This document shows positions 7,124-35,231 of a stretch of 45,044 nucleotides of DNA, piece by piece. The position numbers and the translations under genes were made by a program. Source of the stretch: a virus (Duplodnaviria > Caudoviricetes); IMG/VR virus record IMGVR_UViG_3300037424_000451, positions 1-45,044 of that record; one strand, 5' to 3'. Numbering within the stretch: position 1 is the first letter of the stretch; every line of letters begins with the position of its first letter. Under the pieces are notes generated by a model. That model worked only from the letters and a program-made list of their open reading frames with translations, ran no database searches and was not told the DNA's origin.

Positions 7124-7318
7124 ATGGCTGATGAAAATAAGCATCTTTGTGAAGGTAGCATTCCACAATCTGGGTATGGTCCGGCCATCAATTATTGTGC
7201 AGAAGAGCCATATGGGTCGTTGTGGGTCGGTAACGACGAATATTCAAGCCAGGTGAATTTCTGTCCATACTGCGGATACAAAGCTAAAATTCAAATTCAG
7301 CCAGGGGAACCAATATAA
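7124..7318 (+). CDS. Small protein with C-terminal NFCPYCG zinc knuckle
   Basis: GGAGG SD; stop overlaps portal ATG. Confidence 0.65.
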   Translation: MADENKHLCEGSIPQSGYGPAINYCAEEPYGSLWVGNDEYSSQVNFCPYCGYKAKIQIQPGEPI

Positions 7319-10300
7319 TGGCAATCGGCTTAATGCAACACGCTACATACGCCACAAACGCCGACCTCGACCGGGAAGAGCGCGAGATCTTCGAAGAGGC
7401 CCGTAGCCTACAGGAGAACCGGGCAACGGTCCTGCCAACCAACCTGGCAGCCCATGTCGATGTCTGCTGGCAGGCGGCCTATCAGGCCAGAGCATCAGGC
7501 GGGAAGACCGGGATAGACGATATCATGCTCCAGTGCATGAGGGCTCGGGAAGCCATCTATGACCCGGAAGATATGGCAGAGATTGAGGCCTTTGGCGGGT
7601 CTCAGATCTACATGAATGTGACCGACAACAAGTGTGTTGCCTTCGAAGCCTGGACCAGGGATGTGATGCTGCCTCCAGGAGAAAAGCCTTGGACTATTGA
7701 GCCTACCGAGTGTCCGGATTTACCGGACGAGATTGAGGCCCAAATCGGTATGCAAGTCATGATGGAAGCCCAAGCCTTTTTGATTCGATATGGTCCACAG
7801 GCCCTCACGACACAGTTGGTCGCCATGAGGCTTGAAGAGTTGCGTCGTAAGGTCATGCAGCAAGAGAAGCAGTATGCGGATGTGGTGACGGCTCGTTATG
7901 AGGAAAAGATAGAGGACGATTACCAGGAAGGCGGATTCTACACCGCAATCGACCAGTTTATCAGCGATCTTGCCACCTTCCCAGCGGCCTTCATCAAGGG
8001 GCCGTGTATGAAGCGTCGGAAGGCCCTTGTGTGGCAACCGGACCAGTCAGGAGGTCAATCGGTCCCGGTTATCCAGGACGTTATCCGCAAAGAATATAAG
8101 CGCGTCAGTCCGCTTGACTGTTACCCATCCCCTTCTTCAAGGGCTGTGAATGACGGCTACTTCATCGAGCGAATGCGGCTCAGGATGCAGGACATCCAGC
8201 AGCTCACCGGGATGGAGGACTCAGGCTACAAGGACGATGAGGTACGGTTGGTCTTGCAAGAGGCAAAGGGTGGGGCCGGTGGTTTCAGGCTTTCCGTCCC
8301 TACCGACCAGTCACGTCAGGAGTTGGAGAACAGGAATGAATCTGACGATTCTGAAGGAATAATCGACTGTCTGAACTATTGGGGTCACGTCCAGGGGGTC
8401 AAGTTACTGGAATATGGTATGGATAGGGCGCGTGTTCCGGACCCGGATCTTTACTATCACTCCAACATCTGGAAGATCGGGACCCACGTCATCATGGCGC
8501 GCCTTAATCCTCATCCGCTTGGTGAAACCCCATACTATTCGTCTTCTTTCAGGCCAAAGGCTGATTCCATTTGGGGTAAGAGCCCTCCGATGTGCATGAG
8601 GGCATCTGCGCGGGCTGGAAACGGAGCGGCCAGGGCCATGATGAATAATGCGGCCATCGCATGTTTGACTGGCGATACGGTTGTTTATAGAGAAGGACAA
8701 TCACGAAAATATTCCGCAATCACCATTGATGAATTGTGGGAAAAGAAAACTCAGCCAAATAGTGGTCTTAAAAGAATCAAACTTCGTTCACTTGATGAAG
8801 CAACTGGCGAGTTTATATCCAATCCAATCGTCGATATCATTGATAATGGTATCGGTGATATTTTTGAGGTAATGACTGAGCGAGGCTATAAGATTAAGGC
8901 GACCGGAAACCATCGATTTATAAATACTGTTGGAGAATGGCAAACTCTCGATCAATTTGATGTAGGTGAAATGATTGGCGTAAATGGGCAATCAGCGCCA
9001 CTTCCATCCAAATGTATTGATTGTGGGGAACCTATTGTATCAAAAAAGGCGTTGAGATGCCGCTCATGTGGAAACAAACATCAATGGAAGAGCAGAAAGA
9101 GGGCTCCAGTAATCTGCATTGAATGTGGTCATGAATTGAAATCTAGAAATGGTGTCCGGTGTCGGTCCTGCGCTTCAAGAAATAGTAACTCAGTATGGAA
9201 TAAGCTCCAAATTGAGCAATCAAGGAACAATTTTGATGTTAGTGGAACCACTGCTAGGTATCGTTACGATTGCCAGTCCCAAAAGAAAGATTTCTGCCAG
9301 CTTTGTGGCAAGCATGGGGGGAGGCTTGAGGTGCATCATAAGGACCGAGTCCCCTGGAATAACGAATCATCTAACCTTGAAACGTTTTGCTCTACATGTC
9401 ACCACGCATTACATACCCGTGAGGATAGTTTTGGTGATGCGTATCTTCATCGGTATCTTAGTTTTGATCGTATTGTATCAATCACATATGTTGGGCAGGA
9501 ACGGGTGTTCGACCTATGTATGCTCGCACCAAATCATAACTTCGTAAGTAATGGATTTTTAAGCCATAATTCAGGTCCACAAGTTGAGGTGGACATTTCA
9601 AGGATAGATCCCGCCACCAACCCGATGGTTATCATGCCTTGGGGACTCTGGAAGAACAACGGCAAGCAGGGGCCAACGGAAGGCCCGGCCGTCAGATTTT
9701 TCATGCCTCCTCTGGTGGTCAAGGAGCTCCTTGTAATTTTTCAATGGTCATCCGAACAGGAATCAGAGGAGTCCGGTATACCAAACTCCATCTATGGCGG
9801 ACAGGGCAAGATGGGGAGCGGGGCGGCTGACACATACTCCGGCTACGCCATGATCACGAATGCAGCCAACAAGACGCTGGGGGGCGTGGTGTTCCATATC
9901 GACCAGAACGTCATAGTTCCGGCCACCCGTAACCACTGGCTTCACCTGATGCTGTATGACGACAGTATGACGAAAGGTGGGGACATCAACGTGGTGGCGC
10001 GGGCATCCAGATTCCTGATTGTTGCCGAGCAGATTAGACAGAGTCTAGCAGAATTTTCACGGGATACCAACAATAAGATTGACCTTGAAATCATGGGGAT
10101 CGAGGGGCGTGCTGAACTTCTGAGAGAAAGGGCGCGGTTCCTCCGTACCAAGTCCAACAAGATCATTCCGGACGAAGAGAAACTGAAGGCGCGGCTTATG
10201 GAACAGGCTGGGATGGTGCAGGATCAACCGCAGAATGGAGGTCAACCGAAGCCCGGTCAGCGGCAGATCCCAGAGAAGGCGGGACCCCAGACGAAGCCGA

Positions 10301-10437
10301 CGGCGGGCCGGCCAAGGCCTGGTATGGAGCAGCAAGGCGGTAGAGGGCCAAGTCAAGGGCCAAGACAACCACAGGGGCAAGGCCAGGGTCAGGGGATGCA
10401 GAGGCCTATGCAACCACCACAACAAGGGGGGATGTGA
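7318..10437 (+). CDS. Portal (head-tail connector) protein precursor containing an intein; ~736 aa after splicing
   Basis: Position after terL; podoviral portal-like motifs (RVSPLDCYPSP, NPHPLGETPY, SIWGKS, SGPQVEVD); Q/P/G-rich tail. Confidence 0.88.
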   Translation: MAIGLMQHATYATNADLDREEREIFEEARSLQENRATVLPTNLAAHVDVCWQAAYQARASGGKTGIDDIMLQCMRAREAIYDPEDMAEIEAFGGSQIYMNVTDNKCVAFEAWTRDVMLPPGEKPWTIEPTECPDLPDEIEAQIGMQVMMEAQAFLIRYGPQALTTQLVAMRLEELRRKVMQQEKQYADVVTARYEEKIEDDYQEGGFYTAIDQFISDLATFPAAFIKGPCMKRRKALVWQPDQSGGQSVPVIQDVIRKEYKRVSPLDCYPSPSSRAVNDGYFIERMRLRMQDIQQLTGMEDSGYKDDEVRLVLQEAKGGAGGFRLSVPTDQSRQELENRNESDDSEGIIDCLNYWGHVQGVKLLEYGMDRARVPDPDLYYHSNIWKIGTHVIMARLNPHPLGETPYYSSSFRPKADSIWGKSPPMCMRASARAGNGAARAMMNNAAIACLTGDTVVYREGQSRKYSAITIDELWEKKTQPNSGLKRIKLRSLDEATGEFISNPIVDIIDNGIGDIFEVMTERGYKIKATGNHRFINTVGEWQTLDQFDVGEMIGVNGQSAPLPSKCIDCGEPIVSKKALRCRSCGNKHQWKSRKRAPVICIECGHELKSRNGVRCRSCASRNSNSVWNKLQIEQSRNNFDVSGTTARYRYDCQSQKKDFCQLCGKHGGRLEVHHKDRVPWNNESSNLETFCSTCHHALHTREDSFGDAYLHRYLSFDRIVSITYVGQERVFDLCMLAPNHNFVSNGFLSHNSGPQVEVDISRIDPATNPMVIMPWGLWKNNGKQGPTEGPAVRFFMPPLVVKELLVIFQWSSEQESEESGIPNSIYGGQGKMGSGAADTYSGYAMITNAANKTLGGVVFHIDQNVIVPATRNHWLHLMLYDDSMTKGGDINVVARASRFLIVAEQIRQSLAEFSRDTNNKIDLEIMGIEGRAELLRERARFLRTKSNKIIPDEEKLKARLMEQAGMVQDQPQNGGQPKPGQRQIPEKAGPQTKPTAGRPRPGMEQQGGRGPSQGPRQPQGQGQGQGMQRPMQPPQQGGM
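8662..9570 (+). mobile_element. Intein (303 aa) with zinc fingers and HNH homing endonuclease
   Basis: Block A CLTGDT, block B ATGNHRF, block F/G VFDLCM..NHNFVSNGFLSHN followed by Ser+1; LEVHHKD..NN...NL...C..CH HNH motif; AT-richer than exteins. Confidence 0.95.
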
Positions 10438-10438
10438 G

Positions 10439-10765
10439 ATGGTGTATTTATTTGACAATAGGGAAGTCAACAAGGCTTATTCAAAGGCTATCAATGAAAT
10501 TGAATATGATAGTGAAGCGCTAGGGCTTTTTACTCAAGGGTGGTCTGCCGCCATTAACTGGGCCAGGAAGCATGTGGACGCTATTTCCAAGATGAAAGAA
10601 GCTGAAACGCCGAAACCCGATCCAAAAGTCGGGATTGAGTGGATTCCCCGCGTAACGTACACGTTTCCAAGTTGTTCGACCTACAAGGTCGGTGACAAGA
10701 TTTCCTTTAACGGCAAAACGATCATCATCACTGGCGTCTACGAGGGAAAGGATGCCGATGCCTGA
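10439..10765 (+). CDS. Hypothetical protein (MVYLFDNREV...)
   Basis: ATG 2 nt after portal stop with GGGGG SD; upstream extension in ORF track is a shadow of the portal tail. Confidence 0.6.
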   Translation: MVYLFDNREVNKAYSKAINEIEYDSEALGLFTQGWSAAINWARKHVDAISKMKEAETPKPDPKVGIEWIPRVTYTFPSCSTYKVGDKISFNGKTIIITGVYEGKDADA

Positions 10766-11075
10766 TAACCTCATCAAACTCGAATTTCACCTGTTCAACC
10801 CCTCGTGTGTCGATACCGAGACCACGAACGGGATCTCACAACTGGCCAGGATTCACGGCGCGGATCACCTGAAGGTCTTGTTGACCAAGTTCTTCGACAA
10901 CCTCAGCGTCGAGTGGCTGAGTCAGCCTCGTCACAAGGATGACCTTTACAGGGGGGCTTTGCTGGCCATCCAGGACGTTGAACGGGTACTGGAAGACGCC
11001 CATAGGCTTGCGATCGTTCGTGACACGCAGGAGAAGGCCAAGGGCGTTGAGCCGAAGAAGTGGAGAGCGGTGTAA
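10758..11075 (+). CDS. Small conserved-position protein downstream of portal
   Basis: Helical ~105 aa with DDLYRGALLAIQD, similar to small post-portal proteins of podoviruses. Confidence 0.6.
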   Translation: MPDNLIKLEFHLFNPSCVDTETTNGISQLARIHGADHLKVLLTKFFDNLSVEWLSQPRHKDDLYRGALLAIQDVERVLEDAHRLAIVRDTQEKAKGVEPKKWRAV

Positions 11076-11086
11076 TGAAGCGTGGA

Positions 11087-11184
11087 AGGTGCTTGAGATA
11101 CCGGCACCTGCCGATGGAGCCCAGAGGCTCCACACCTGGCGAACATAGGGAACGCCAGGAGCAGGCTTTCCTCTATTGAGGAAA
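11087..11184 (+). promoter_or_regulatory. Multi-hairpin structured leader
   Basis: AGGTGC/GCACCT, TGGAGCC/GGCTCCA, CCTGGCG/CGCCAGG, TTTCCTC/GAGGAAA. Confidence 0.5.
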
Positions 11185-11236
11185 CGTCCAGAATCTTAAC
11201 CTTTTCAGTTATGTTTGACACGCGGAGGATACGGAA

Positions 11237-12223
11237 ATGGTTTGGAGAAATAACGCTTCTTTTGGAACAGTTAGGGCCGATAATGTGTTCGCAGCTGGCA
11301 ACTTATTGGGTGGATTGGGGGTTGGGAACGTCTATCACGTATGTAAATCGACCGACACGGCTGTGTACAAGAACATGCAGCAATATTTCGGTGGGTTGAC
11401 CCATAAGAATGATGGGACTGCGGTTTTGCATACGGATATTCAGACGGCCCTTGACGCCACAGTGGAATGCCGGAATGATTACGTCATCGTGCAGCCGAGT
11501 AACTCCGATTATGACCTGACGGCTGTCCTTACGATGTCAAAAAAGTGTGTCCATCTCATCTGTCCCGCTGGTTTGGGGTATGATATTGGAGCAACCAACG
11601 CAGCCAGGTTGCATCAGAATACCATTGCAACGGCCGTCATTGCGGTATCGGATGCGTCCATTGAGATCGCTGGATTTTATTTTAAGAACTATACCGGAGT
11701 GGCGGCGATCACAATGGCGGCTACGTCCTATGCTCCCAATATTCATCACAACACATTTGCGATTTCGGCGATTGCGGCTTGGGTTGGGTCTATCATTGGT
11801 GCAGGAGATGCCGGGGGTTGGGGAAAGATCGAACGTAACTGGTTTGTTAGTCAGGGTGGCGGTGCACAGACTTGTGCGGCTGGAATCATCCAGATTCAGG
11901 CAAGTGCAACAGCGGCGCAGGTTAATCATAATCAGATTACGGTCGGAGATACCCAGATTGCTACCATCGGTATCGCCAATTACGCCGTTAAAGGAAACAC
12001 GAATTTCAACATTTTCTCCGAATCAGGTGGGTCAGGGGTAGCGGACGGAGGAACGATCACGAAGTGTATTGCTATCCATGCGTCAGGGTGCGCCATTGGT
12101 AACATCGGGGCGGTCGCAACCGGCCAGATGCTAACAGGTGGAACCACGCTCCACAGCTATGCAGAAAACTATGGGGCCTACATCGCCAACACCGGAACGA
12201 CGAATGGGTCTGTCGAGGCGTAA
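11237..12223 (+). CDS. Right-handed beta-helix (pectin-lyase-like) protein, probable virion fibre/decoration
   Basis: TDIQTALDA..RNDYVIV cap motif then I..N.F repeats; GGAGG SD. Confidence 0.65.
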   Translation: MVWRNNASFGTVRADNVFAAGNLLGGLGVGNVYHVCKSTDTAVYKNMQQYFGGLTHKNDGTAVLHTDIQTALDATVECRNDYVIVQPSNSDYDLTAVLTMSKKCVHLICPAGLGYDIGATNAARLHQNTIATAVIAVSDASIEIAGFYFKNYTGVAAITMAATSYAPNIHHNTFAISAIAAWVGSIIGAGDAGGWGKIERNWFVSQGGGAQTCAAGIIQIQASATAAQVNHNQITVGDTQIATIGIANYAVKGNTNFNIFSESGGSGVADGGTITKCIAIHASGCAIGNIGAVATGQMLTGGTTLHSYAENYGAYIANTGTTNGSVEA

Positions 12224-12274
12224 CCTTTAAATCTTTAAAACGAGTGGGGGTGGCAACACCCCCATAAGTAAGGA

Positions 12275-12499
12275 TTGATTATGAGCGACTGTACCTTATC
12301 GGCAATTTGCCCAAGATGCGTCAACGGAGTGGCCCAGGTTCTGGATTCCGAAGGGGTCATGATAGAGGAAAACCCATGCAAGTGGTGTAACGGGGAAAGT
12401 AAGTTTCTTATTGGAACTCTGAAAGTTGATGACCTCATAGACAAACTGAACGACGTGAAAGAGAAGTGTGATGAGATCATGGAGAAATTGAACGAGTAA
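12275..12499 (+). CDS. DnaJ-type zinc finger (CPRC..G / CKWCNG) plus C-terminal coiled coil
   Basis: Two CxxCxG motifs; heptad DDLIDKLNDVKEKCDEIMEKL. Confidence 0.7.
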   Translation: MIMSDCTLSAICPRCVNGVAQVLDSEGVMIEENPCKWCNGESKFLIGTLKVDDLIDKLNDVKEKCDEIMEKLNE

Positions 12500-12501
12500 C
12501 C

Positions 12502-12533
12502 CCGCGACGGCATCCTCTGGGGTGCCGTCGCGG
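12502..12533 (+). other. GC-rich hairpin without U-tract
   Basis: CCGCGACGGCA/TGCCGTCGCGG 11-bp perfect stem. Confidence 0.6.
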
Positions 12534-12551
12534 ATAAGGGAGGGATAAGGG

Positions 12552-12713
12552 ATGGGAGATTTTTATAAGGAGGCTTTCGAACTTTTGGAAAAAGCGGTTG
12601 ACCATATCGGACCATGGTCGGATTATTGCCCACATCCTGATGATGACAAAGAAGCGCAGGATCTTCACGACAAGATAAAGGCGTTTGTCGAAAAGGCAAA
12701 GGAGGCCACATGA
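12552..12713 (+). CDS. 53-aa hypothetical protein (MGDFYKEAFELLEKAVDHIGPWSDYC...)
   Basis: Read manually; GGGAGG SD region; ATGA overlap with next gene. Confidence 0.65.
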   Translation: MGDFYKEAFELLEKAVDHIGPWSDYCPHPDDDKEAQDLHDKIKAFVEKAKEAT

Positions 12714-13183
12714 CCCGCTACATTCTGAATGACGTAAGGCGTAACTTCGCGGACAACATTGAATATGTGATTTGGAAAAAGTCCCGCAAAATTGAGGTAA
12801 GGGACCAAACGGATTATTTTGTCCTCCATTCACAATTATTCAATACTGCCCTGAAGAAGTTGGGGATACCTGAATCATTCAACATTAATGATCCGTTTAG
12901 CATGTTGCGATTCCTAAAGACAGCGCCTCATCAAATGAAAGTCAATGGGGTGTGGGTCGAGCCAAGAAAAAAGTATGGACCCGAATGGGGCGGCACAGAA
13001 AAGGACAAGGAGCATTGCGGTTTGTATTTTTTCAGGCAATGGGTTGAGGATTCGCCTCCAGAGATAGCGTACTGGATAAGCGACTGCATCCGAAAATTCA
13101 AGCCAAGGCCAATCGTCGGGCCGAACGGTCAGAAATTATGGGAGATTAAGGAGATGTATCTTTTGACGAACGTACCGGCGTGA
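12710..13183 (+). CDS. Hypothetical protein
   Basis: 157 aa, AAGGAGG SD. Confidence 0.7.
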   Translation: MTRYILNDVRRNFADNIEYVIWKKSRKIEVRDQTDYFVLHSQLFNTALKKLGIPESFNINDPFSMLRFLKTAPHQMKVNGVWVEPRKKYGPEWGGTEKDKEHCGLYFFRQWVEDSPPEIAYWISDCIRKFKPRPIVGPNGQKLWEIKEMYLLTNVPA

Positions 13184-13665
13184 TGGAGGGGAGCATGGAA
13201 AAGGAAGAGTGGGGATATTCGGTTCACAACGAGGATAATCCTCTGACCAAGGACAATATCGTTGATGTCATGAAGAGTATTGACCTTGGCACTCCAGATA
13301 AACCAGTGTACTTGAACTTAGGCAATTTCCTTGATGTTATGGGCCAGGTTGATAAAGAGATAGTTCAGCCTGTAATCGATGAACGAGAAGACGGAAGGGA
13401 GGAATTAGTGAATTTTAAAAGAAAAATTGGGCATTTCACAATCGCTGAGGCTCTTCTTGATGAAGCGCCAGATGATATGCAATCAATCATGGCCGAAGTA
13501 ATCGTTGTTCACTGTGAAAGCCTATATTATGAAAGGGCATTCCGTTATACGGCTATATCCAAACACTTTTCTGAAATTCCGTTAGGATACAAGATTCCTG
13601 AATACGAAATTATCACTGAAAAAAAGGATGAAGAAATAAGCGTTTCTTTTAAACGAAAGGAATAA
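13180..13665 (+). CDS. Hypothetical protein
   Basis: 161-aa acidic ORF, coupled start. Confidence 0.7.
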   Translation: MMEGSMEKEEWGYSVHNEDNPLTKDNIVDVMKSIDLGTPDKPVYLNLGNFLDVMGQVDKEIVQPVIDEREDGREELVNFKRKIGHFTIAEALLDEAPDDMQSIMAEVIVVHCESLYYERAFRYTAISKHFSEIPLGYKIPEYEIITEKKDEEISVSFKRKE

Positions 13666-13671
13666 CACGAC

Positions 13672-14174
13672 TTAGCTGACAACCGAGTTAAGGGAGGGGA
13701 GCATGAAAAAAGAAGATTCGGACGATGTGATTAAGGAGTTAGACAAGAGGCTGACTGCCCTACGATCAGCCTGTGACGCTGTTGATGACAGGCTCAGGGC
13801 CTATGAAATGGCTCTCAGCACAACCCATAAGCAGCACATGATTGAAATACGGAGGCAACGGGAAGAGATCGACAACACCATAATGAAAGACAGTGGCGTC
13901 AAGGAACAAACCATTGAGCGTAAATGTCAGGAAGCGGCCGCCATACTGTTTGCTGAGAAGTACCCAGAGATAAACCCGAAACAAGCGATCAGCCAGGCCG
14001 TAATTGATAAGATCGTGGTATCGATCATGAAAAAGGGGGATTTCAAAAGGCTTTTCATGCGGTACATCGCGGATACCATCGGGTTCGAGATTTTGAGAAG
14101 AAACGGTTTTAACGTAGACGTTGTTGAATACCCAGAAGATAAAGAGGAGAACGAACCGATTTAGCTGACAACCG
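13672..14174 (+). repeat. 14-bp direct repeat TTAGCTGACAACCG (13672-13685, 14161-14174) flanking one gene
   Basis: Exact match read from sequence. Confidence 0.85.
13703..14164 (+). CDS. Coiled-coil hypothetical protein
   Basis: 153 aa, AGGGAGG SD. Confidence 0.7.
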   Translation: MKKEDSDDVIKELDKRLTALRSACDAVDDRLRAYEMALSTTHKQHMIEIRRQREEIDNTIMKDSGVKEQTIERKCQEAAAILFAEKYPEINPKQAISQAVIDKIVVSIMKKGDFKRLFMRYIADTIGFEILRRNGFNVDVVEYPEDKEENEPI

Positions 14175-14223
14175 GGGCGTTTTCGAGCGGTCGGCCAACC
14201 TAACGAGAACGTCAGAGAACTTC

Positions 14224-14267
14224 AAGGGCAATTGTGGGACCCACACCTACAGTTGCTCTTTTTGTTT
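14224..14267 (+). terminator. Intrinsic terminator-like hairpin upstream of scaffold gene
   Basis: AAGGGCAATTGTGGG/CCTACAGTTGCTCTT stem (G:U pairs) followed by TTTGTTT. Confidence 0.65.
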
Positions 14268-14374
14268 GCCCCGGACTCCAATACCGCCACCCCGGAAGAC
14301 CTCGCAGAAGCAGGCTCCGGGGGGCGTAAAAAAGGAAGACGGCCGCTGGCCGCTCCAAACAACCAGAGGATCAT

Positions 14375-15550
14375 ATGGCATTAACAGACGCCGAGATTGC
14401 AAAACTACCGGAAGCTCTAAGACGCAAGTACCAGACAGAGAAAACTGCGCTGGCGCAACCGGCCAAACCAGAACCATCGGCCCCTGTCGAAACACCTCCA
14501 GCGGCACAGCCTCAGCTTGTGATCCACAACCCGGATCTCAGGCAGCCTGAGCCACCGGCTTCGACGCAGGCCCAAGAACCAGAACCATCAACGCCCCCTG
14601 CACAGGCACAAGACCCATGGGAACAGAAGGCCAGGGTCTTGGCCGGGAAGATACGCTCAGAGTTCGGCATCACTCCGTACATCAACGAGCATCTAGGCTG
14701 GGAACAGAATTACGCCCTCATTCAAGAACGGTACAACAATGAGGCCCGGCTTAAAGCCATGAGCAAGCAGCTCGTGGACGCTCAGACTGTCATGAAGTTC
14801 CAGGCCGAAGCTCTGAATACGTTGAAAGACTTCCAGGCCAAGGTAACACCAAAGGCCCCTGAGCCACCCAAACCAGTCCCACAGGCCACAATCAAGCCCC
14901 TAAACCTTGAGGATTACGATCATCTTGAGGATGAGGCCAAGGAGCTTGCCAAACGGTTCAACCAAGTCATCGAACTTGTTTCGCAGCAGCAAGGAACCAT
15001 GGCGCAGCAGCAAGAGGTCATCCGACAACTTCAGGGTAAGACCGAAACACTGTCGATGAGCACTGATCGTGTTGCGAAGGATTTCGGGGCCACGCAGCAT
15101 CAGCAATTCATATCAGCCCTCGAAGGTGCAGTCCCGGATTGCTGGACATTGAATGAAAACCCGGACTTTCGGGATTGGCTGGACCAACCTGTTCCGATGG
15201 AAGTCATCGGGCCAAATGGTCAACTCATGGAGAAGACCATGAAGCGTGACGACATCCTCCAGGCGGCTCAGAACTCCAGAAATGTTGGGAGAATTCAGAA
15301 ACTATTCAACGAGTTCAAGACCCAGACCGGATACCGGGCTCCATCTAACGGTGGAAGACCTTCTCCGGATCTGTTCATTGAGCCCGATACGGCAGGCCGG
15401 GGGGCGACACCACTTACGAAACCTAAACAAGAGCCCGTGACGCGTGAGCAACTGGATGCGGCGGCTAAACGGGCCAGAATCGAGAGGACACCAGAGGCGA
15501 TAAATGCCTTCAACAAACTTTCATCTCAATACCAAGGGTCAAGTGGATAA
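14375..15550 (+). CDS. Capsid scaffolding protein
   Basis: Directly upstream of capsid; P/E-rich N-terminus, coiled coils, VPDCWTLNENPDFRDWL motif. Confidence 0.8.
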   Translation: MALTDAEIAKLPEALRRKYQTEKTALAQPAKPEPSAPVETPPAAQPQLVIHNPDLRQPEPPASTQAQEPEPSTPPAQAQDPWEQKARVLAGKIRSEFGITPYINEHLGWEQNYALIQERYNNEARLKAMSKQLVDAQTVMKFQAEALNTLKDFQAKVTPKAPEPPKPVPQATIKPLNLEDYDHLEDEAKELAKRFNQVIELVSQQQGTMAQQQEVIRQLQGKTETLSMSTDRVAKDFGATQHQQFISALEGAVPDCWTLNENPDFRDWLDQPVPMEVIGPNGQLMEKTMKRDDILQAAQNSRNVGRIQKLFNEFKTQTGYRAPSNGGRPSPDLFIEPDTAGRGATPLTKPKQEPVTREQLDAAAKRARIERTPEAINAFNKLSSQYQGSSG

Positions 15551-15601
15551 CCACGGCATCGCCATGGTGATCCACCTGCCTTTAGATAACAGGAGATTAT
15601 C

Positions 15602-16552
15602 ATGGCAATAGCTGTAGCATCAGGATATCCGCAACATTCCGGGACCTTCATTCCCGAAAAATGGTCACTGAACCTTCTGGTTCAGTATTACGCAACCGAC
15701 GTGATTCCCCAGATCACGAACTCGAACTACATCAACGAGATAAAAGACGTTGGGGACATTATCCACATCAGAACTAGGCCCGACATCACCTGGCACGCCT
15801 ATGTCAAGGGCCAGGACATGACTCCGGACTTTCCGAACGCCCCCATCGTGGATTTTCCGGTTGAACGGGCCGGGTACTTTTTCTTCGCGGTGGACAACAT
15901 CGACGCTCATCAATCCGACATCGCCATGATGTCCGATTGGGCGGAAGGTGCGGTAAAGAACAGCAAGAACGCTATAGACGCCGCATTCCTGGCTGATGTG
16001 TATGCCGATGCGGACGCCGACAATATCGGGGCAACGGCTGGAGTCGATAGCGGAAACATCAACATGGGGGCCGCTGGAGCGCCCGTCACCCTGACGGCAG
16101 ACAACATCCTTCAGAAGTACGTTGCGGCCGGTGTCATCCTGTCAGAGCAGAACGTACCTAATGACCGGAACCGCTGGGCCGTCATGCCGCCCTATGCGCT
16201 TGGGCTTATCAGCCTGTCTGACATCAAGGACGCGAGCCTTTCGGGTGACGGAACAAGCCTTCTGAGGACCGGAACCGGACGGATTGGGCGGATCTCCAAT
16301 TTCACGACCTACGAGTCCACCCAGCTCACAAGCGTCACGGACGGGACCACAGCGGACACCTGCTGGTATCTGATGTTTGGACACCAGGATGCCATCGCGT
16401 TTGGCACCAACTACATCGAGACGGTCCACTTCGACAAGTTGGAGCGGATGGCCGGGCAGGCGACAAGGTGCCTCCAGGCATATGACTGGAAGGCGCTTCG
16501 AGGCGAGGCTTTGACGTATCTGTACGCCACCTTTGCCGATAACGAGTTCTAA
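15602..16552 (+). CDS. Major capsid protein (HK97 fold, P22-coat-like)
   Basis: GTFIPEKWS, NSNY.NEIKDVGD..HI, RWAV.PP, GRISNF..YES..L, FGH..AI.F motifs; AGGAG SD. Confidence 0.92.
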   Translation: MAIAVASGYPQHSGTFIPEKWSLNLLVQYYATDVIPQITNSNYINEIKDVGDIIHIRTRPDITWHAYVKGQDMTPDFPNAPIVDFPVERAGYFFFAVDNIDAHQSDIAMMSDWAEGAVKNSKNAIDAAFLADVYADADADNIGATAGVDSGNINMGAAGAPVTLTADNILQKYVAAGVILSEQNVPNDRNRWAVMPPYALGLISLSDIKDASLSGDGTSLLRTGTGRIGRISNFTTYESTQLTSVTDGTTADTCWYLMFGHQDAIAFGTNYIETVHFDKLERMAGQATRCLQAYDWKALRGEALTYLYATFADNEF

Positions 16553-26552: not shown

Positions 26553-27911
26553 ATGCCACTTCAATACGAACCGTATCCGACAGGTGAATCATGGCTCAGG
26601 ATGGGAAATCAGGCCGTGGGGCTCAAGAGGCAGATCCAGCAATCCGACGCCTTCGAGGAAGACCGGGAAACAACACAGAAGACGGCTGAATATCAATCTG
26701 AGATGACAAGAAATCCGGAATTTCGTCCAGACCCCAATGCTGTTGGATATAATCCAAAGGCCGATATGGGGGCTCAAGCCGCTTATCTTGCCCAACAAAT
26801 TGAGTGGAATCGCCTTGATAGCGGTAAGCAGAAATTAAAGTCAGATCAGTTAAGCGACGATTACGAGCAATCACAACGGGCGGCATCCGATGTTACGTCA
26901 TGGCTTCGCATCGCTACTTCTCAATATCCAGACGCCGAAACTTTGGAGGATCTTCCCAAAGATATACGGGATAAGATCGTTGATTCCTTTGTCGGAGCTC
27001 ATGCCTATATCCCTGATGGAAGATATTCTGAAAAGAATGCCGATGGAACAGTGACCATAAAGGGTCAATTCAACGACTACAACAGCATTCTTGATCCGTC
27101 AAAAATCAGCGTAAAGGACGTAGAGGAATTTTGGGCGGGTCAATCTATGAATTTGACGGACAAATCGGCTTTTACAAAAGCGTTTCTTGCATCTGAGTCT
27201 GCGACTAATCAAGCGAATGCCGGTGCGTGGTCAAATCCTCGCATTGTTTTTGATCCAAATTCCAACACAAGGGCTTTTCGGGTCGATCAAGTACACAAAA
27301 AAGGTCCTAAACGCGGTAAGGTTGAAAGTTACTATTTTGATCATTTTCCGATAATGCGTGACGATGTTCCAATGTCTCCCGATCAAGTTGGTAAATTTTC
27401 GGTGGATTTGGGACTTGTCAATGCCCAGAAGTATGCTCCTGAAGTAGCTGAAGAAGAAGCCAAAACCGGCATGACGGCGGCACAACAGGCAGATAAGGGA
27501 TTCAAGGAACGCGAGCTTGGTCAGCATGAGAAACAGCTTGGGTTGGCTGCGTCTAAGGAAACCAGGGAGCAGGAAAAGGCTGATATGGAAAAAGAGGCGG
27601 CACCACAGAAAGCCAACCAAGAAGCTGTTAAAGCCTATAACGATTACCTGAAAGCGTTTGAACTCAATCCCAAAGAGGCGCTTTCGTTTAAGGACTGGAA
27701 GGAGCAGATTTGGACGTATCGGGAGGAAGGCCCGAAGGGTTTGTCGGGTAAGACCGGCGAAAGCGTTAAGGGTAAGATCGGAAAGCCCAGAACGATTGTG
27801 GACAAGAAAACAGGTCGGACCTACAAGGCCTATTCTGACGGGAAGATAGGATTACCGAACGGCAAGAAGGTAACGGTGGAAGAATTCAAAAAGATGACTG
27901 AGGGGCAATAA
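26553..27911 (+). CDS. Internal virion/ejection protein
   Basis: GGAGG SD; position among ejection genes. Confidence 0.7.
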   Translation: MPLQYEPYPTGESWLRMGNQAVGLKRQIQQSDAFEEDRETTQKTAEYQSEMTRNPEFRPDPNAVGYNPKADMGAQAAYLAQQIEWNRLDSGKQKLKSDQLSDDYEQSQRAASDVTSWLRIATSQYPDAETLEDLPKDIRDKIVDSFVGAHAYIPDGRYSEKNADGTVTIKGQFNDYNSILDPSKISVKDVEEFWAGQSMNLTDKSAFTKAFLASESATNQANAGAWSNPRIVFDPNSNTRAFRVDQVHKKGPKRGKVESYYFDHFPIMRDDVPMSPDQVGKFSVDLGLVNAQKYAPEVAEEEAKTGMTAAQQADKGFKERELGQHEKQLGLAASKETREQEKADMEKEAAPQKANQEAVKAYNDYLKAFELNPKEALSFKDWKEQIWTYREEGPKGLSGKTGESVKGKIGKPRTIVDKKTGRTYKAYSDGKIGLPNGKKVTVEEFKKMTEGQ

Positions 27912-29278
27912 TGCCGCTACTCGCAGAGCTTGGCCTTGATCCTGAACGGTTCTCCATAGAAGACGAACCGGATACGCCAGAGGTACGGGCATCTTCAACC
28001 ATAGAGGGCCTTGACCCTGAGCGGTTCGAGGTGTTGGAAGATGAGGTAGACGAATCGACCTTTCGTCAATGGTATGGAGAAAAAGCAAAAAATACCGGAC
28101 TGAATCCCGATCCCGATGACCCCCAACACAGATACGATTACCGTGCAGCATTTGGTGCAGGTGCAGAACCAGAAAAGGGATCTGACGGTCAATACCATTG
28201 GCCATCTCAGTTCAAAGCCGACGATCATCCGAATCGTTTCGTTGACGGCCAGGATACGAAAACAGGTGAGCGTATCCCGGTCATTCGCCAGATGCCAGAA
28301 TCCGAAATCGGTTTGGTAGAACGCGGAAGGCGATACCTTGAGGAAAAGGGATGGGTAGAGCCAAAAACCAGGATGGATCCTTCCCAGATTGCTGAGGCCC
28401 AGATAAGGCATGAGGCAAAGGGATTGCCACTGGTCAGAGAGGAAGGCGGACAAGGCATGACGCCTGATGACATTTCGTTGCTTGCTCCACCTAAAAGAAT
28501 ACTCGGAATGGCGAGGGACAATACCGCACCCTACTACCGACCGGCAACCACCGAGGAATACAAGCAGCAGGTTTACCCGGAAGGGACCGGTCTTAGAAGG
28601 GCAGAGCAATATGGGCGCGACATAGGGGCTGGCTTCACTGGCGTCTCTGAGGGCCTTGCCGGTATGGGCCAGTGGCTCACGGGTGGCATGATCGGGAACG
28701 AATCGGCCAATGCCGCCAGATTGCTCAGGGAAGAATTACAGGCTGAAGACCCCAACTTTGCGGATCAAGTCGCTTCAGGTGTTGGGTCGATGGTGGCCTT
28801 CTTCGGACCCGGTATCGGGGTATCAACGGCATTGCAGGCCACATCTAAGGTTGCGCCATTTTTAGCCAAAGCCCTTGGAACAACTGTCATGAGCGCAACT
28901 GAAGCCGGGACGGAGGCTGGCCTAGTTTATAGGAATTCCCTCGAACGGAACAGAGACCCCGAAAGGGCCGAAAGTGAGGCGTCCACTACCTTTTTGCTCA
29001 ACATGCCGCTTCTTTGGGTTACGAACAAGCTCGCCTACTTCTCCGATGTCCTGAAGAACCCGGTAGCAAAGCGGATACTTGGCGGCATCATGGAAGGCAC
29101 GCAGGAATCAGGCCAGGAAGTCATCTCGACAAAGGCCCAAGGGGAAGAACTGAAGCTCAAGGATGTCATGACCTCAGGTGCGGTAGGGTCAATTCTTCGG
29201 TGGAGGTGGAGCAGCATCTCAGAAGGGACCCCAGGGTCTTCAACGTCGTCCTTCCGAGACCGACAACGCGCCAACTGA
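27911..29278 (+). CDS. N-terminal part of giant polyvalent ejection protein (continues in +1 frame)
   Basis: FRQW..YDYR..HWPSQFK..HP module and Gly/Ala-rich helices (EAGTEAG, EGTQE..QE). Confidence 0.75.
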   Translation: MPLLAELGLDPERFSIEDEPDTPEVRASSTIEGLDPERFEVLEDEVDESTFRQWYGEKAKNTGLNPDPDDPQHRYDYRAAFGAGAEPEKGSDGQYHWPSQFKADDHPNRFVDGQDTKTGERIPVIRQMPESEIGLVERGRRYLEEKGWVEPKTRMDPSQIAEAQIRHEAKGLPLVREEGGQGMTPDDISLLAPPKRILGMARDNTAPYYRPATTEEYKQQVYPEGTGLRRAEQYGRDIGAGFTGVSEGLAGMGQWLTGGMIGNESANAARLLREELQAEDPNFADQVASGVGSMVAFFGPGIGVSTALQATSKVAPFLAKALGTTVMSATEAGTEAGLVYRNSLERNRDPERAESEASTTFLLNMPLLWVTNKLAYFSDVLKNPVAKRILGGIMEGTQESGQEVISTKAQGEELKLKDVMTSGAVGSILRWRWSSISEGTPGSSTSSFRDRQRAN

Positions 29279-32200
29279 TATGCTTGAACCCACGGAGATG
29301 CAGGCTAGTCAAGGTATTCCGGGGAATATTCCGCGTGGAATGCCTATTCCCACTATGCAGGAAGCCCCCATCGAGGACCTTATCACGCCGGAATCCGGGG
29401 CAGCACCGATTGACATGCTGGAACCTGAGCCCATGGCGCCGGTGTCACAACCGCAAGTTCGAGGGCTACAGCGGGAACCCATAACAGTTCAACCGGAAGG
29501 AGTACCGTATGCCGAAGGAATTGGAACGCAAGTTGAGGAAAGAGGCCAACCAGCACAAGAACTGGTCGGAGGAACAGAAGGACAAGTACGTGTACGGGGC
29601 CTTGAGGAAGACCGGATGGAAACCGGCCAGGGAGAAGAAGCGGTAGTACCCCCGGAAATACCCCCTGCACCTCCTGAGAGGGCCGTAGAGACGACTTTAC
29701 CCCAAGAGCCTGTACCTACCCCTGCCGAGGTGCCTGAAGTGGTGGGGGAGGAACCAGTTGTCAAGAAATCTTTGACTACTGAGCCCCCCGCAGAAGTGGT
29801 GAAGGGGAAAGAGGCGTGGGAGATGACGGCTGAAGAACATCGAAAACGTGCCAAAAAGATGTCCGATGATGATGTTCGAGAAGAAGTTATTCAAGTGCTT
29901 ATGCAGCGCGATTGGACACGAGAGAAGGCCGAAAAGTATATTCAAGGTGAATTCAGTATTCGTGCCATGCACGATGCTGTAGTACCTAGCGGTATTGTAG
30001 AGCGTGCTATCTCCGAAGGCAAGCCAGTCCCACAGTCTATCATCGACGAGTATCCCGGCCTGAAGCCCCCAGCCCCCTCAGCCGAGAAGGGGGAGACGGA
30101 AGGCAAGCCCCACACCCATTCAGGCCCCGGCTACACCGTAACCCGTGTCAAGGACGCCAAAGAGGATGCCCAGACCAAGTGGACCATCGAGATGGACGAG
30201 CAGACCCGGGCCGACCTTCCCGGCATCATCGGAATTGCCAAGGACGCAACTAAGGGCGAACGGTTTCTGACCATAGATGAAACTGGACAACGGAAGGTAA
30301 TAGGTGTAAAATCAGGGCGTCCTGAATTCATGCAGCACCCTCGGCTGAAGTCCGAGAGGGTGCCCGGGAAGTCCGGGGCATCCCCTGCCGACCTTGAGAA
30401 AGCCGTCAATAAAGCACTGGCCGGGGAACCATTGGGCGTCAAACAGGCCCGTCTCGTCGAAGATGCAATCATCTATCTGCGCGAGATGCGGCTACAGGAG
30501 GAGGCGAAAGATGTCGGAATCTCAAAAGAAGATTTTGACCGTCTCTCAGAAGAAGAGTTTGCAAGAGCTGAGAGAGAAGCTATTCAAGCTGAGTCAGGAA
30601 AAAATTCGGCTGAGAAAGTTTCAGGACCAGAGGGAAAAGGACGAACAGGAAATCTCTTCAAAGCCAAGCCCGAACCCTGGGCCTTAACCCCGTCTGAGCC
30701 CACCAAAGAAGAACGACTTGCCATGGCCCCCAAGGAGAAGGGGCCTAAGAAGCGGGCCGTATTCCCCACCGAGAAAGTCAAGACCGCCACCACCGGAAAA
30801 CAGACCGGCCTGTTTGGCAATGAGTTTAAGCCGGGCGAGAGCCGGGACCTGTTCGACCAGGTGGGGGAGGTAAAGCTGGTCCTGCGGGAGCCAAAAAAGA
30901 AAGATGGATTTGTTCAAGTCTTTAGAGGCGAAAGCACATATAACAAGGGTGGAAATTACTATACCACTGATCGTGAATGGGCAAGGCAATTTACACAATC
31001 TGGACAAGATAAGGAAGTTTTTAAAGGATGGATTAAGGAAGACAGAATTTATAGGCCAGAGCCTTTACCAAGCGCCACAAGCGAAAAAGAGTTCGATACT
31101 GCAATAGCTGAAGCCAAGGCTAAAGGATACTCAGCGGTATGGTTCGATGAAGGCGTTGGTGAACCAAATTCAGTCTATGTTTTCAATCGTAGAGACTTTA
31201 AGCCAGGAACCAAACTTTCAATACAAGACCCAACCGCTCAATACCTCTGGGAGCTTGCCCACGAGCCGGAAACCCCCGCAGAAGTCCAACGCCTGATTGA
31301 CGTTGCCGACACCATCAAGAAGACCATTGAATCCGTGGTCCCCAAGGCTGACCTCTCACGCCTGACGGTCAAGTTGGTCCCACGCATATCCCTCGAGGGC
31401 CGGAACGTGGCGCAGTCTGCCAAGGAGTATGGCAAGACCGCGGACCAGATAGACCCTGAAAACATCCTCGGCATATACGAGTCGTCCAAAGATCTGATCG
31501 AGATTGCCCATCACCCGGAAGCCCCCCTCAGACAAACAAGAATCACGGCGATGGAGGAAGCCCTTCACCGGGTGCTGGACAAGGTGATGAGCCCCAACGA
31601 CCTTGAGTTCATTATGAAAGAGCACAAGGGCAATGAGGAAGCCACTGTAAAGCAGGGCGTGAAATTCATCATAGCCGAGCAGGATGAGCTTGCAAGGCTC
31701 ATGGCCGACAAGTCCATTTCCACCAGGGCCAAGATGATTTGGAAAAAGGTCCTGGACATCCTGAAGCGGATACGGGGAGCGTTCGGGTGGAAAGGGCAGA
31801 AGTCGTCAGATGCGATTTGGGAGAAGGTTCTCGGAAAGGGATACCAGCCACACGATGGGGCCAAGAAGGAAGGCACGAGCTTCAGCGTGGAGGAACCGAC
31901 CGACACCCCCGAATCCGCAGCCGACCGACTCGGCATCTACTTCGACGGCGAACAAGAGATATGGACCAAAGACGGCCCTGCCGGAACCAAATACCAGTTC
32001 ACTGACCCCCAGACGGAAGGTGGGACCTTCTACGTCAAGGACCTGAAGGACCTGGACAAGACCCTTGAGGCCAAGAGGAAGGAGTTTGGCGTGTCCGGGC
32101 CGGAAGTAAGGCTATCCATCAAGAAGCATGAGCAAGACGCTGAGCACGTTGGCGCCAACCCCAAGTTCTACGCCCCCGCGATGGATCAGGCAACATCGAC

Positions 32201-35200
32201 CATCAAGGCCATGCGGGAGTTCAAGGTCATACCGGGCGGCTTCATCGACAACACCTTCAAGACCCCTGAATGGTCGGATCATCCGGTTGAAAAAAAGGTT
32301 ACTGACGCAGCACTGGATAGAGAGAAAAACAAGCACAAGTATTTCTACAACATCGACCACGACCAGGAAACGGACCAGAACATTTGGGAATCCCTGAAGG
32401 ACCTCAAGGATCGGGGAACCTCCATTCTGTCTCGTATCAGGGGCCGGGACCTTTATGATGTCCAGAACGCCAAGGTATCCAAGGAATACAAGCAAGTCTC
32501 AGCGGCCATCGACCACATGGACACCGAGCGTCATCAGTGGCTTGATGCGCCCCAGGAGCTCGCAGGTGAACCTGGCTTCGGGGAAACCAAGAACTTTCAT
32601 GCCATCACGTTGAATCCAACCGACCAGTTTGACCAGGAAGGAATGGACGGGAGTAAGTTCAAGACCACGGACTTTCACCGGGGCGCTAAGGGCCATGAAG
32701 GCATCACCTTCATCATCGGGAAGGATACCGAGACCGGCGACGTCCTGACCCATAGCGTGCGGTTCCGAAAGGACACCTTCAAGCCCGAAGAGGTCAAGGC
32801 GTGGTTTGAGGAAAACAAGGATGTCTTCGCTGGCCGGACCGGCTACCGATCGGTTCTGGAAAAGAAGAAAGTCTCCAAGGATGTCCTGGAAGCGGTCGAT
32901 ATGTACCGCCGGGCCAACGACAAGGCCCTCGACCACATGAGGGCGAACCTCAAAGAAGTGATCGACGCCTACCGGGATGCCGGGAAGAAACTCCCGACTC
33001 TGTTTGTCGAGAAGGACGAGAAAGGCAAGGCCACCCCCTACACCCTGAAGGACGCCTATGAGGAGATGGGGCAACACCGGGGCTATTACGCGCCCAGGAT
33101 AAGGGAATCGGGCGATTGGGTGGTGCAGTCGGTCAAGGGAGACCAACCCTACCGCTACCACACCCAGAGCCGCAGGAAAGCAATCGCGCTTGAACAGCGG
33201 TTGATCCGGGAGGGCCACAAGGATCTGAAGCGGTTCCGAGACTCCCGCATGTTGCCCGAATCCGTCTATGAGGACCTGACCATCGGGGAAGTGGCGAAGG
33301 CCCTGGAGAACGCCGTTGAGAACATGCAGGGCGTTGATCCCGATACCACGGCGAAATTCAGGCTTGAAGTCATACAGGCGGCTTCCGATATGCTGAAGGC
33401 CAGGGCGTTTCGATCCCACAGAATCAAGAGGTCTGACAAAGTGGTGAAGGGCTACATTGAGGATCCCCTGACCCGCCACCTTCTCTACACGAATCAGATT
33501 GCAGGCGGCATCTCCAAGGGTGAAGCGGCCCAGGAGATGTTCGACGCCTATCTGGGCAAGTTCGAGAATTACATCCGGGACGACAAGACCAACACATGGG
33601 TTCTGAAGGATTCTGAAGGCACGCCTTTGGATTCCAGGCCTATGAAGGATGAAGAGATCGAGGCTGACAAGGGAAAGAAGTCCATGCGGTTCGGGGGCCT
33701 CTCGCCAGCACAAGACAAGGAGCTCCACTCGAAGCTCAAGGATTACATCAGCAACCAACTCCGAAACCCTGACCGGATGGACCGGCTTGTGGGTCTCGGA
33801 AAGTCTATCGTGTCCTTCAAGTATCTTGGATTTAATCCACGCTCCATGCTGGTCAATACGACTGCCATGATTACGACTGTGCCTTCAGCCATCCATCAAT
33901 ACGCCATGGGGAGCAAGGGGAGCCTGACGAAGATAGGGGCATCCATCATGAAGGCCGGGGTCGATTACGTAGGCGTCATGAGGGGCAAGAAATTGGCCAA
34001 CGCCCAAGAACAGGCCTTCATGGATCTGGTTCAACAAGAGGGATATGACACCCCTCAGTACATGCACGATGCCATGGGGGCCATGAAGGATATGTACGGC
34101 GGCATGTGGTCTAACATCATGAGCAAGGCTATGGTTCCGTTCGGGATAACGGAGCAATGGAACCGGGGCTCCACCATGTTGGCAGCATACCGACTGGCCC
34201 GTGGCCAGGGGAATACCCACGAGGACGCCATGAAGTTGGCTCAGGATGCCAGCAATAAGGCCCACGGGATCTATGGGCAGGCGACTCTCCCGACATGGGC
34301 ACAGGGCAAGAACCCTGCGGCCCTGGTACTCCGGATGGGCTACACCTACCAGAAGTTTGGACACAATTACGTCCAAATGCTGATGGACCTTGGTTTCAAG
34401 AAGCGCAACATCAAGGCCCTGACGTTCGCCATGGCAGCGCCGATGGTCATTGGAGGCCTTGAGGCTTCCTTGGCGGCCAATATCGTCATGATGATTGTCA
34501 AGGCTATCCTTCGGGCCATCGGGGAGCCAGAAGATCCGGAAAAGATCGTATACGACGTGATCCGGTCTGAATTCGGCCGGGGGTGGGAACGGGCGGCACG
34601 TTACGGGGCTTTCGGGGCAGCCGGGGTTGACATATCTGGATCTCTCTCGGTCGGGATGGAGGTCCCCAAGACCCTGATGGATCTCACGGGGCCTTTTGGG
34701 GGCGTCTATAACGACATCTCGCAGGCTGCCCATTATTTGACCACAGGACAGCCCTACAGGGCCGTAGAGAAGACTTTGCCCAATGTGGCATCCAACCTAT
34801 TCACGGCGGCCCGTGAGCTCAGGACGGGGGCCGTAACGAAGTCAGGCTATCCCGTGTGGGATGAGGAAGGGAAACCGCTTCAGCCTTCTGCTGTCGAAAC
34901 CGGGCTCAAGGGCATGGGGTTCCGGTCTTCCAGGCGAGCGACCCTCCAGGCGTCCGAATGGGAATGGAAGCAGATGGAGACTCGGTATGCCGATAAGCGG
35001 AAAAAGATTTACGAACAGTACCGCGCATACCTCAAGACATGGAGCAAAGATAAGTATCAAGACATCATGAAGCAGATCAAGGAATACAACGCAGACGTGA
35101 TGTCTGAAGGACTTCAAAAGCAGGTCCCCCTTATTACCAAGGCCAGCATTAAAGGCCAAGTCAAAAGAATGGCGAAACCAACGAAACGTCAAATGTCGAG

Positions 35201-35231
35201 GATTATGGAAGCGGAGGAAATGGAGCAATGA
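29199..35231 (+). CDS. C-terminal part of giant polyvalent ejection protein (ART-like, degenerate zincin-like, PLxRFG/LPD-like helical domains)
   Basis: 1983-aa ORF from 29280 without SD; frame open from 29187; GYYAPRIR.SG.W, YLGFNPRS..VN, EQWNR...AAY, YQKF motifs. Confidence 0.8.
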   Translation, partial: GGGGAASQKGPQGLQRRPSETDNAPTDMLEPTEMQASQGIPGNIPRGMPIPTMQEAPIEDLITPESGAAPIDMLEPEPMAPVSQPQVRGLQREPITVQPEGVPYAEGIGTQVEERGQPAQELVGGTEGQVRVRGLEEDRMETGQGEEAVVPPEIPPAPPERAVETTLPQEPVPTPAEVPEVVGEEPVVKKSLTTEPPAEVVKGKEAWEMTAEEHRKRAKKMSDDDVREEVIQVLMQRDWTREKAEKYIQGEFSIRAMHDAVVPSGIVERAISEGKPVPQSIIDEYPGLKPPAPSAEKGETEGKPHTHSGPGYTVTRVKDAKEDAQTKWTIEMDEQTRADLPGIIGIAKDATKGERFLTIDETGQRKVIGVKSGRPEFMQHPRLKSERVPGKSGASPADLEKAVNKALAGEPLGVKQARLVEDAIIYLREMRLQEEAKDVGISKEDFDRLSEEEFARAEREAIQAESGKNSAEKVSGPEGKGRTGNLFKAKPEPWALTPSEPTKEERLAMAPKEKGPKKRAVFPTEKVKTATTGKQTGLFGNEFKPGESRDLFDQVGEVKLVLREPKKKDGFVQVFRGESTYNKGGNYYTTDREWARQFTQSGQDKEVFKGWIKEDRIYRPEPLPSATSEKEFDTAIAEAKAKGYSAVWFDEGVGEPNSVYVFNRRDFKPGTKLSIQDPTAQYLWELAHEPETPAEVQRLIDVADTIKKTIESVVPKADLSRLTVKLVPRISLEGRNVAQSAKEYGKTADQIDPENILGIYESSKDLIEIAHHPEAPLRQTRITAMEEALHRVLDKVMSPNDLEFIMKEHKGNEEATVKQGVKFIIAEQDELARLMADKSISTRAKMIWKKVLDILKRIRGAFGWKGQKSSDAIWEKVLGKGYQPHDGAKKEGTSFSVEEPTDTPESAADRLGIYFDGEQEIWTKDGPAGTKYQFTDPQTEGGTFYVKDLKDLDKTLEAKRKEFGVSGPEVRLSIKKHEQDAEHVGANPKFYAPAMDQATSTIKAMREFKVIPGGFIDNTFKTPEWSDHPVEKKVTDAALDREKNKHKYFYNIDHDQETDQNIWESLKDLKDRGTSILSRIRGRDLYDVQNAKVSKEYKQVSAAIDHMDTERHQWLDAPQELAGEPGFGETKNFHAITLNPTDQFDQEGMDGSKFKTTDFHRGAKGHEGITFIIGKDTETGDVLTHSVRFRKDTFKPEEVKAWFEENKDVFAGRTGYRSVLEKKKVSKDVLEAVDMYRRANDKALDHMRANLKEVIDAYRDAGKKLPTLFVEKDEKGKATPYTLKDAYEEMGQHRGYYAPRIRESGDWVVQSVKGDQPYRYHTQSRRKAIALEQRLIREGHKDLKRFRDSRMLPESVYEDLTIGEVAKALENAVENMQGVDPDTTAKFRLEVIQAASDMLKARAFRSHRIKRSDKVVKGYIEDPLTRHLLYTNQIAGGISKGEAAQEMFDAYLGKFENYIRDDKTNTWVLKDSEGTPLDSRPMKDEEIEADKGKKSMRFGGLSPAQDKELHSKLKDYISNQLRNPDRMDRLVGLGKSIVSFKYLGFNPRSMLVNTTAMITTVPSAIHQYAMGSKGSLTKIGASIMKAGVDYVGVMRGKKLANAQEQAFMDLVQQEGYDTPQYMHDAMGAMKDMYGGMWSNIMSKAMVPFGITEQWNRGSTMLAAYRLARGQGNTHEDAMKLAQDASNKAHGIYGQATLPTWAQGKNPAALVLRMGYTYQKFGHNYVQMLMDLGFKKRNIKALTFAMAAPMVIGGLEASLAANIVMMIVKAILRAIGEPEDPEKIVYDVIRSEFGRGWERAARYGAFGAAGVDISGSLSVGMEVPKTLMDLTGPFGGVYNDISQAAHYLTTGQPYRAVEKTLPNVASNLFTAARELRTGAVTKSGYPVWDEEGKPLQPSAVETGLKGMGFRSSRRATLQASEWEWKQMETRYADKRKKIYEQYRAYLKTWSKDKYQDIMKQIKEYNADVMSEGLQKQVPLITKASIKGQVKRMAKPTKRQMSRIMEAEEMEQ
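29509..29646 (+). CDS. Nested +1-frame gene, 45-aa basic protein (MPKELERKLRKEANQHKNWSEEQKDKYVYGALRKTGWKPAREKKR)
   Basis: GGAAGGAG SD 6 nt before ATG; resembles small phage proteins with a YVYG.LRK.GWKP motif. Confidence 0.7.
   Translation: MPKELERKLRKEANQHKNWSEEQKDKYVYGALRKTGWKPAREKKR
30511..30687 (+). CDS. Nested +1-frame gene, 58-aa coiled-coil-like protein (MSESQKKILTVSQKKSLQELREKLFKL...)
   Basis: GGAGGAGG SD 6 nt before ATG. Confidence 0.45.
   Translation: MSESQKKILTVSQKKSLQELREKLFKLSQEKIRLRKFQDQREKDEQEISSKPSPNPGP

Follow-up and report, generated by a model that had tools for sequence, protein, structure and literature searches.

The window (the whole stretch of DNA analysed here, 45,044 nucleotides) has terminase, intein-bearing portal, capsid, and adaptor genes upstream of a giant gene of the ejection or polyvalent type, inside which a small gene is nested in another reading frame (Table 1). 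A start of the host ORF at 29280 very likely does not hold: in a near-identical record (L001, L251, L287) the giant, as seen in L001, runs unbroken from 27911, and an SD precedes the ATG at 27911 and none precedes the ATG at 29280. A start at 27911 is very likely instead, and the unbroken giant is likely the normal form, since L001 has one gene and the SD lies at 27911. The 11-base gap, which is the sole difference between the window and this record over 16,678 aligned columns (zero mismatches), is either an assembly error or a variant. In the L001 form, a single gene of 2443 aa, the small gene begins 540 codons in.

Table 1. Positions of the features discussed, numbered from the first base of the window.
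Feature	Position	Strand	Remarks
Terminase large subunit, intein-bearing portal, major capsid protein	4532..16552	+	Podovirus-like phage context
Giant ejection/polyvalent-type host gene	27911..35231	+	2443 aa; unbroken in near-identical L001
Window ORFs	27911-29278 and 29280-35231	+	Two pieces of the split giant gene
11-base gap relative to L001, L251, and L287	29191..29192	+	Host frame shifted, 106 codons before the nest
Pro/Glu-rich low-complexity linker carrying the nest	29200..29800	+	Follows hydrophobic N-terminal segments
Ribosome-binding site GGAAGGAG	29495..29502	+	E-G-V in the host frame
Nested gene	29509..29646	+	+1 frame of the giant gene; 45-aa basic protein, predicted helical hairpin
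Second SD-led +1-frame ORF	30511..30687	+	58 aa; unsupported candidate

The window's giant has features of its host class, in that it is very large (2443 aa) and encoded among virion genes. A DarB-like PHROG match was identified at its C-terminus (E 1e-9), and a Pfam scan of the protein returned no domain. Hydrophobic windows lie 240 and 108 codons upstream of the nest, and the share of F, W, Y, C, I, L, and M is 14% near the nest versus 22% over the whole giant protein. Besides the near-identical record, no close relatives of the giant's N-terminal part were found, nor was a close allele lacking the small gene. The small gene does not occur in free form in the head-gene region (4532-16552). 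Within this region, the portal gene (7318-10437, + strand) carries an intein with an HNH endonuclease, and two adjoining small ORFs (6226-6728, + strand) have like C-termini (IYGEKVKP...GIV); the terminase that precedes them likewise ends in RRGIV, which may mark a repeated module or a recombination site.

The initial annotation described GGAAGGAG, a six-base spacer, and an ATG opening a basic 45-aa ORF in the +1 frame, with the host frame reading as a linker, and both the coordinates and the translations agree with this. A spacer of 6 bases (29503-29508) separates GGAAGGAG from the ATG at 29509, the stop codon is TAG at 29644-29646, and the product is MPKELERKLRKEANQHKNWSEEQKDKYVYGALRKTGWKPAREKKR (45 aa); across the nest, the host frame of ORF 29280-35231 reads ...EGVPYAEGIGTQVEERGQ... 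and is the linker that was stated. The length of 45 codons is within chance, as 13 of the 37 +1-frame ATGs of ORF 29280-35231 open frames of at least 45 codons, and the case for a nested gene therefore rests on comparison. The SD duplex energy of the nested gene is -8.3 kcal/mol, second strongest among these 37 ATGs, and the median for 1444 other +1-frame ATGs in 28 host genes is -2.7 kcal/mol. The strongest SD of the 37 (-12.1 kcal/mol) belongs to the 58-aa ORF at 30511-30687, for which a homologue search found nothing. No promoter or terminator was detected at the nested gene on its strand. A structural model of the 45-aa protein is a helical hairpin (pLDDT 82), with helices at residues 3-14 and 21-34. 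The window record, 73% complete, contains a single copy of the family.

The small protein family and the settings of its genes

With the 45-aa protein as query, a word-indexed search returned 11 homologues besides the query itself (E 1e-10 to 2e-6), and a profile search returned 530 clusters (50% identity) at E ≤ 0.001; together with the SD of -8.3 kcal/mol, these place the nested gene beyond chance. Free-standing homologues carry the motif MPK.LE..L...YVYG.LRK.GWKP, which the initial annotation had ascribed to stand-alone small phage proteins. Its description of the gene as invisible to gene callers was mistaken, in that the exact protein is already present in a predicted-protein collection and in the ESM Atlas.

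Members of the family are rich in Lys and Arg (median 35%). Neither the 45-aa protein nor 65 family members matched any entry in PHROG, Pfam, or NCBIfam; a PDB sequence search gave a weak partial match only (E 0.004 over 24 positions), and a structure search against 48,161 chains reached a best Z of 4.7, to a common helical pair. The Atlas gives a score of 0.76 to a cluster with 15% DUF6496 (PF20106), a domain that Pfam matches in none of the 65 members. Two queries against 50,697 cultured-phage records revealed no relative. In the main texts of the open-access literature, we found neither this family described nor any giant ejection gene with another gene nested in it. What is named here is a large phage protein family that is undescribed in all the libraries searched (Pfam, PHROG, NCBIfam, and PDB).

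The motif also occurs within longer proteins: in 27 of the best 150 representatives it is part of a protein of at least 100 aa and, in those examined, it is mostly the N-terminus of a Gly-rich protein. Gly-rich proteins of 120-700 aa with a repeated motif begin in this way at L011, L014, L024, L070, L079, L106, and L136, and in P0033, P0060, P0062, and P0107; in several loci they are encoded upstream of capsid genes, and the motif could be a targeting or DNA-anchoring module.

Loci for comparison comprised the best 80 of 256 viral matches, the best 80 of 448 metagenome matches, 26 genome loci, and 100 loci retrieved with a DNA pattern, the last selected to favour nested copies. Among the 285 loci, 272 had one match and none had two, and after removal of duplicates 184 distinct genes remain, of which 150 are free, 6 overlap another gene in part, and 28 are nested. 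A copy counted as nested if a second frame was free of stops over its whole length and stayed open for a long way to either side. The nested share is 20 of 133 when the pattern scan is left aside, and even this figure is skewed, the matches having been ranked by their similarity to the window's protein. Of the 58 free-copy loci of at least 4 kb from the first two scans (several of them near-copies of one another), 47 also encode a terminase, portal, protease, scaffold, or capsid protein.

All 28 nested copies start with ATG and lie in the +1 frame of the host. Where the N-terminal end of the host was closed, the nest follows an N-terminal part of 306-1178 codons, and it usually falls within sequence poor in bulky hydrophobic residues. 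Pfam domains were identified in 9 of the 27 nested hosts scanned, and 6 of the 27 have polyvalent-protein domains (LPD1, LPD14, LPD23, LPD38, MuF_C, or PBECR5). In every genome with a nested copy that was searched (11/11, five of them at least 90% complete), this copy is the sole family match. The host-frame linker has no likeness outside the overlap, and the host-frame alignment provided no conserved stretch usable for a locus search; a search with a larger host-frame profile, in which 7998 candidates of at most 2000 aa were scored, gave nine matches, of which five are hosts outside the loci set. In L097, the first 90 codons of a giant (5205-9641) cover the small gene, and this giant also has a sigma-70 region 4 domain.

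Selection and translation signals in the two frames

The initial annotation proposed a gene that stays separately translatable, and purifying selection in the +1 frame is borne out. The pN/pS ratio (uncorrected, first 14 nested copies) is 0.29 in the small frame versus 1.61 in the host frame, and amino-acid identity across the 28 nested copies is 64% versus 36%. The third codon position of the host is the least variable (0.24, versus 0.52 for the host first position, in the 28 copies), and among 8 diverged pairs of homologous hosts, 6 show a divergence at this position of 0.11-0.20 in the overlap versus 0.56-0.75 in the flanks. The two pairs with no such dip, L010/L082 (0.63) and L176/L254 (0.46), are probably explained by a global alignment that is out of register. 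Two further pairs, L258/L004 and L082/L083, are identical in overlap and flanks alike, and are uninformative on selection. The L258 and L004 giants are 95% identical overall and fully identical over about 2 kb spanning the nest, pointing to recent recombination of this block.

The host frame is also constrained, being kept open and hydrophilic. Third-position T in the small gene, at sites where it makes no stop in the host frame, accounts for 31 of 364 cases in nested copies versus 728 of 2015 in free copies, an avoidance that recurs in each of three GC bands (p ≤ 2.5e-5, values that are too small, as the copies are related and not independent). The open flanks are part of the definition of the nested class, whereas T avoidance at non-stop sites is independent of it. 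With respect to translation, an SD of -6 kcal/mol or stronger precedes 24 of the 28 nested starts versus 11% of 1444 control ATGs, and the median is -8.7 kcal/mol for nested copies versus -6.1 kcal/mol for free copies.

An alternative reading takes the small frame for a dead relic or a chance ORF, with only the host linker being maintained. The frequency of +1-frame ORFs of similar length in the window's giant (see above) is in keeping with it; however, the ATG, the open frame, and the family motif are kept in 28/28 nested copies, the third positions of the host hardly change within the overlap, and the genomes searched have no other copy. We regard this reading as highly improbable, the frame-specific selection having largely refuted it.

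Origin of the nesting

The initial annotation called the small gene overprinted, which reverses its genealogy. If the more widespread frame is taken as ancestral (a criterion set out in PMC8227390), then the small gene, with 150 of 184 copies free, predates the linker. De novo overprinting was rejected as an origin, in that the nested frame is not rarer than the host frame and the linker has no likeness elsewhere. De novo overprinted viral genes, as presented in the same review, resemble the present case in same-strand dual coding with one frame disorder-prone in composition; here, however, the nested frame would be ancestral, and the new sequence would be the host linker. The accompanying proposal, that a gene was absorbed whole and out of frame into a low-complexity linker, is the most likely account, based on the tree, the composition of the linker, and a relocation case; the small gene was thus most likely captured and not born by overprinting.

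The relocation case concerns four loci. In L086 and L087, a free copy is flanked on one side by a homologue of the gene preceding the L082 giant and on the other by the beginning of a gene homologous to the L010 giant. The corresponding two genes are directly adjacent in L010 and L082, where the small gene is instead nested in the giant, at a depth of 610-865 codons; the nested copy of L082 is 85% identical to the free copy of L086 and L087, whose contigs are short and could also carry a nested copy beyond their ends. This is one lineage with the same gene free before the giant and nested inside the giant.

How many times nesting arose depends on the reading of the hosts and of the tree. When the overlap is masked, grouping the hosts by any likeness yields 10 groups, and grouping them by their upstream or downstream parts alone yields 16; nesting sites differ among host groups. 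A single ancient nesting could nevertheless have been inherited while the giants diverged and swapped domains, with some of the free copies being escapees, and it would be consistent with the nest always following an N-terminal part of the host (where that end is closed), with a weak N-terminal homology common to 8 hosts, and with the clustering of nested copies beyond that of shuffled labels. Giants shuffle domains fast, so unalike flanks are no proof of separate origins, and the direction of change between L086/L087 and L082 can be read either way. With 14 copies, the test did not reject a single nested clade (AU p 0.144); with 28 nested versus 49 free representatives of 149 it did (AU p 0.0022), in a tree of 38 columns with a rough, unsettled bootstrap that does not distinguish gains from losses. 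In addition, the starred branches of the tree force at least seven changes, the nearest relative of most nested copies is a free copy, and different subtypes are nested. We consider a single origin unlikely on this balance. L092 and L240 are homologous giants with the nest at the same position and clearly different small-protein subtypes in it, suggesting replacement of the small gene in place.

Nesting may also have come about by engulfment, in which the two neighbours of a small gene became one by read-through across it, with no insertion. Intermediates are seen in which the upstream ORF overlaps the start of the small gene by 8-125 bases, in 22 of 23 cases in the same frame relation as the nested copies. 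An ORF in L226 runs through the small gene, and the L097 giant extends over it at its N-terminus. In the two-state lineage, however, the free copy precedes the N-terminal part of the giant whereas the nested copy follows it, and a free copy between homologues of the two halves of a host was not found among the loci. Engulfment appears quite improbable to us, and capture by insertion into a linker remains the preferred reading.

Several known arrangements resemble this one in part. Embedded two-component spanins such as lambda Rz1, which lies in the +1 frame of Rz (PMC6139136), are likewise small, separately initiated phage genes wholly inside a larger gene, with the DNA shared with a flexible linker; that survey describes separated, overlapped, and embedded layouts, and found no spanin family in which embedded members occur alongside overlapped or separated ones. 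The present gene is neither a lipoprotein nor a lysis gene, its hosts are virion-type proteins of 900 to more than 3000 aa, and the present family spans all three layouts, in many unalike hosts. An embedded o-spanin was rejected for the window, as the 45 aa include no Cys or hydrophobic signal and the host is a 2443-aa virion-region protein. In the ShiLan insertion, an HNH endonuclease gene lies out of frame in an actinobacteriophage DNA methylase gene (PMC11855218). There too a pre-existing gene was inserted out of frame and the host frame is stop-free and read as a loop, but the present gene has no endonuclease and so no homing means, is not confined to one site of one host, and is usually free-standing in structural modules. 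A homing endonuclease insertion was rejected, the product being a 45-aa two-helix protein with no nuclease domain and no Pfam, PHROG, or NCBIfam match. Phage polyvalent proteins (Iyer et al., 2017; PMC5512222) are, like the hosts, giant multidomain proteins encoded near virion genes; the window's own giant differs in having only the DarB-like PHROG match. The word "overlap" does not occur in the main text of that paper.

Whereas the origin of embedded genes is usually argued from end states, the present family lets the route of capture be traced and tested, because it spans the layouts and, within a single lineage, includes both the free and the nested state.

Proposed mechanism and role of the nested genes

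We propose that a late-expressed small gene was inserted, more than once, into tolerant linkers of giant virion genes, and that a few synonymous changes then keep the host frame open. Stops in the host frame would arise only from a third-position T of the small gene before AA, AG, or GA, and the Lys, Arg, and Glu codons of the small gene would be read in the host frame as an acidic, flexible linker; with few ways to stop and codons that read as linker, insertion would be easy in this one frame. Over the core, this frame is in fact stop-free already in 36 of 149 free copies. Ribosomes would initiate internally at the nested SD on late structural mRNA. Overall, the window contains a conserved +1-frame small gene, and we consider it probable that this gene was captured from a free-standing position and is translated from its own SD, with a basic product, predicted to be a hairpin, that would bind DNA in the head. 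A role in head assembly, DNA packing, or ejection is suggested more tentatively, based on gene context and charge.

The product may instead be an RNA-binding or translational regulator, or the site may act in cis as an internal ribosome-loading site on the giant, so that nesting itself would be functional. The very basic, Arg/Lys-rich short helix pair would suit such a role, as would the stronger SD of nested copies, and free copies lie directly before giant genes in two lineages. Most free copies, however, are in head modules away from giant genes, the motif is also the N-terminus of Gly-rich proteins of 200-480 aa, and the stronger SD may merely follow from purine-rich linker codons. A regulatory or cis-acting function seems to us rather doubtful.

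In a broader reading, to which we give about even weight, the disordered linkers of giants would serve as a landing pad for whole small genes, in which one virion family was captured out of frame many times, each independently, and which it can also leave, with all stages (separate, overlapping, and embedded) still extant. If so, much of the annotated low-complexity linker in giants would be the shadow of hidden genes. For annotation and the definition of domains, the consequence is that a linker apparently conserved across unrelated giants can be the shadow of another gene.

The 28 hosts contain 41 other SD-led ORFs in alternative frames, for which no homologue was found among the loci outside near-identical hosts. 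In hosts L171, L176, L255, L199, L192, and L194, further SD-led +1-frame ORFs of 50-107 codons resemble real small proteins and are candidates for other nested genes.
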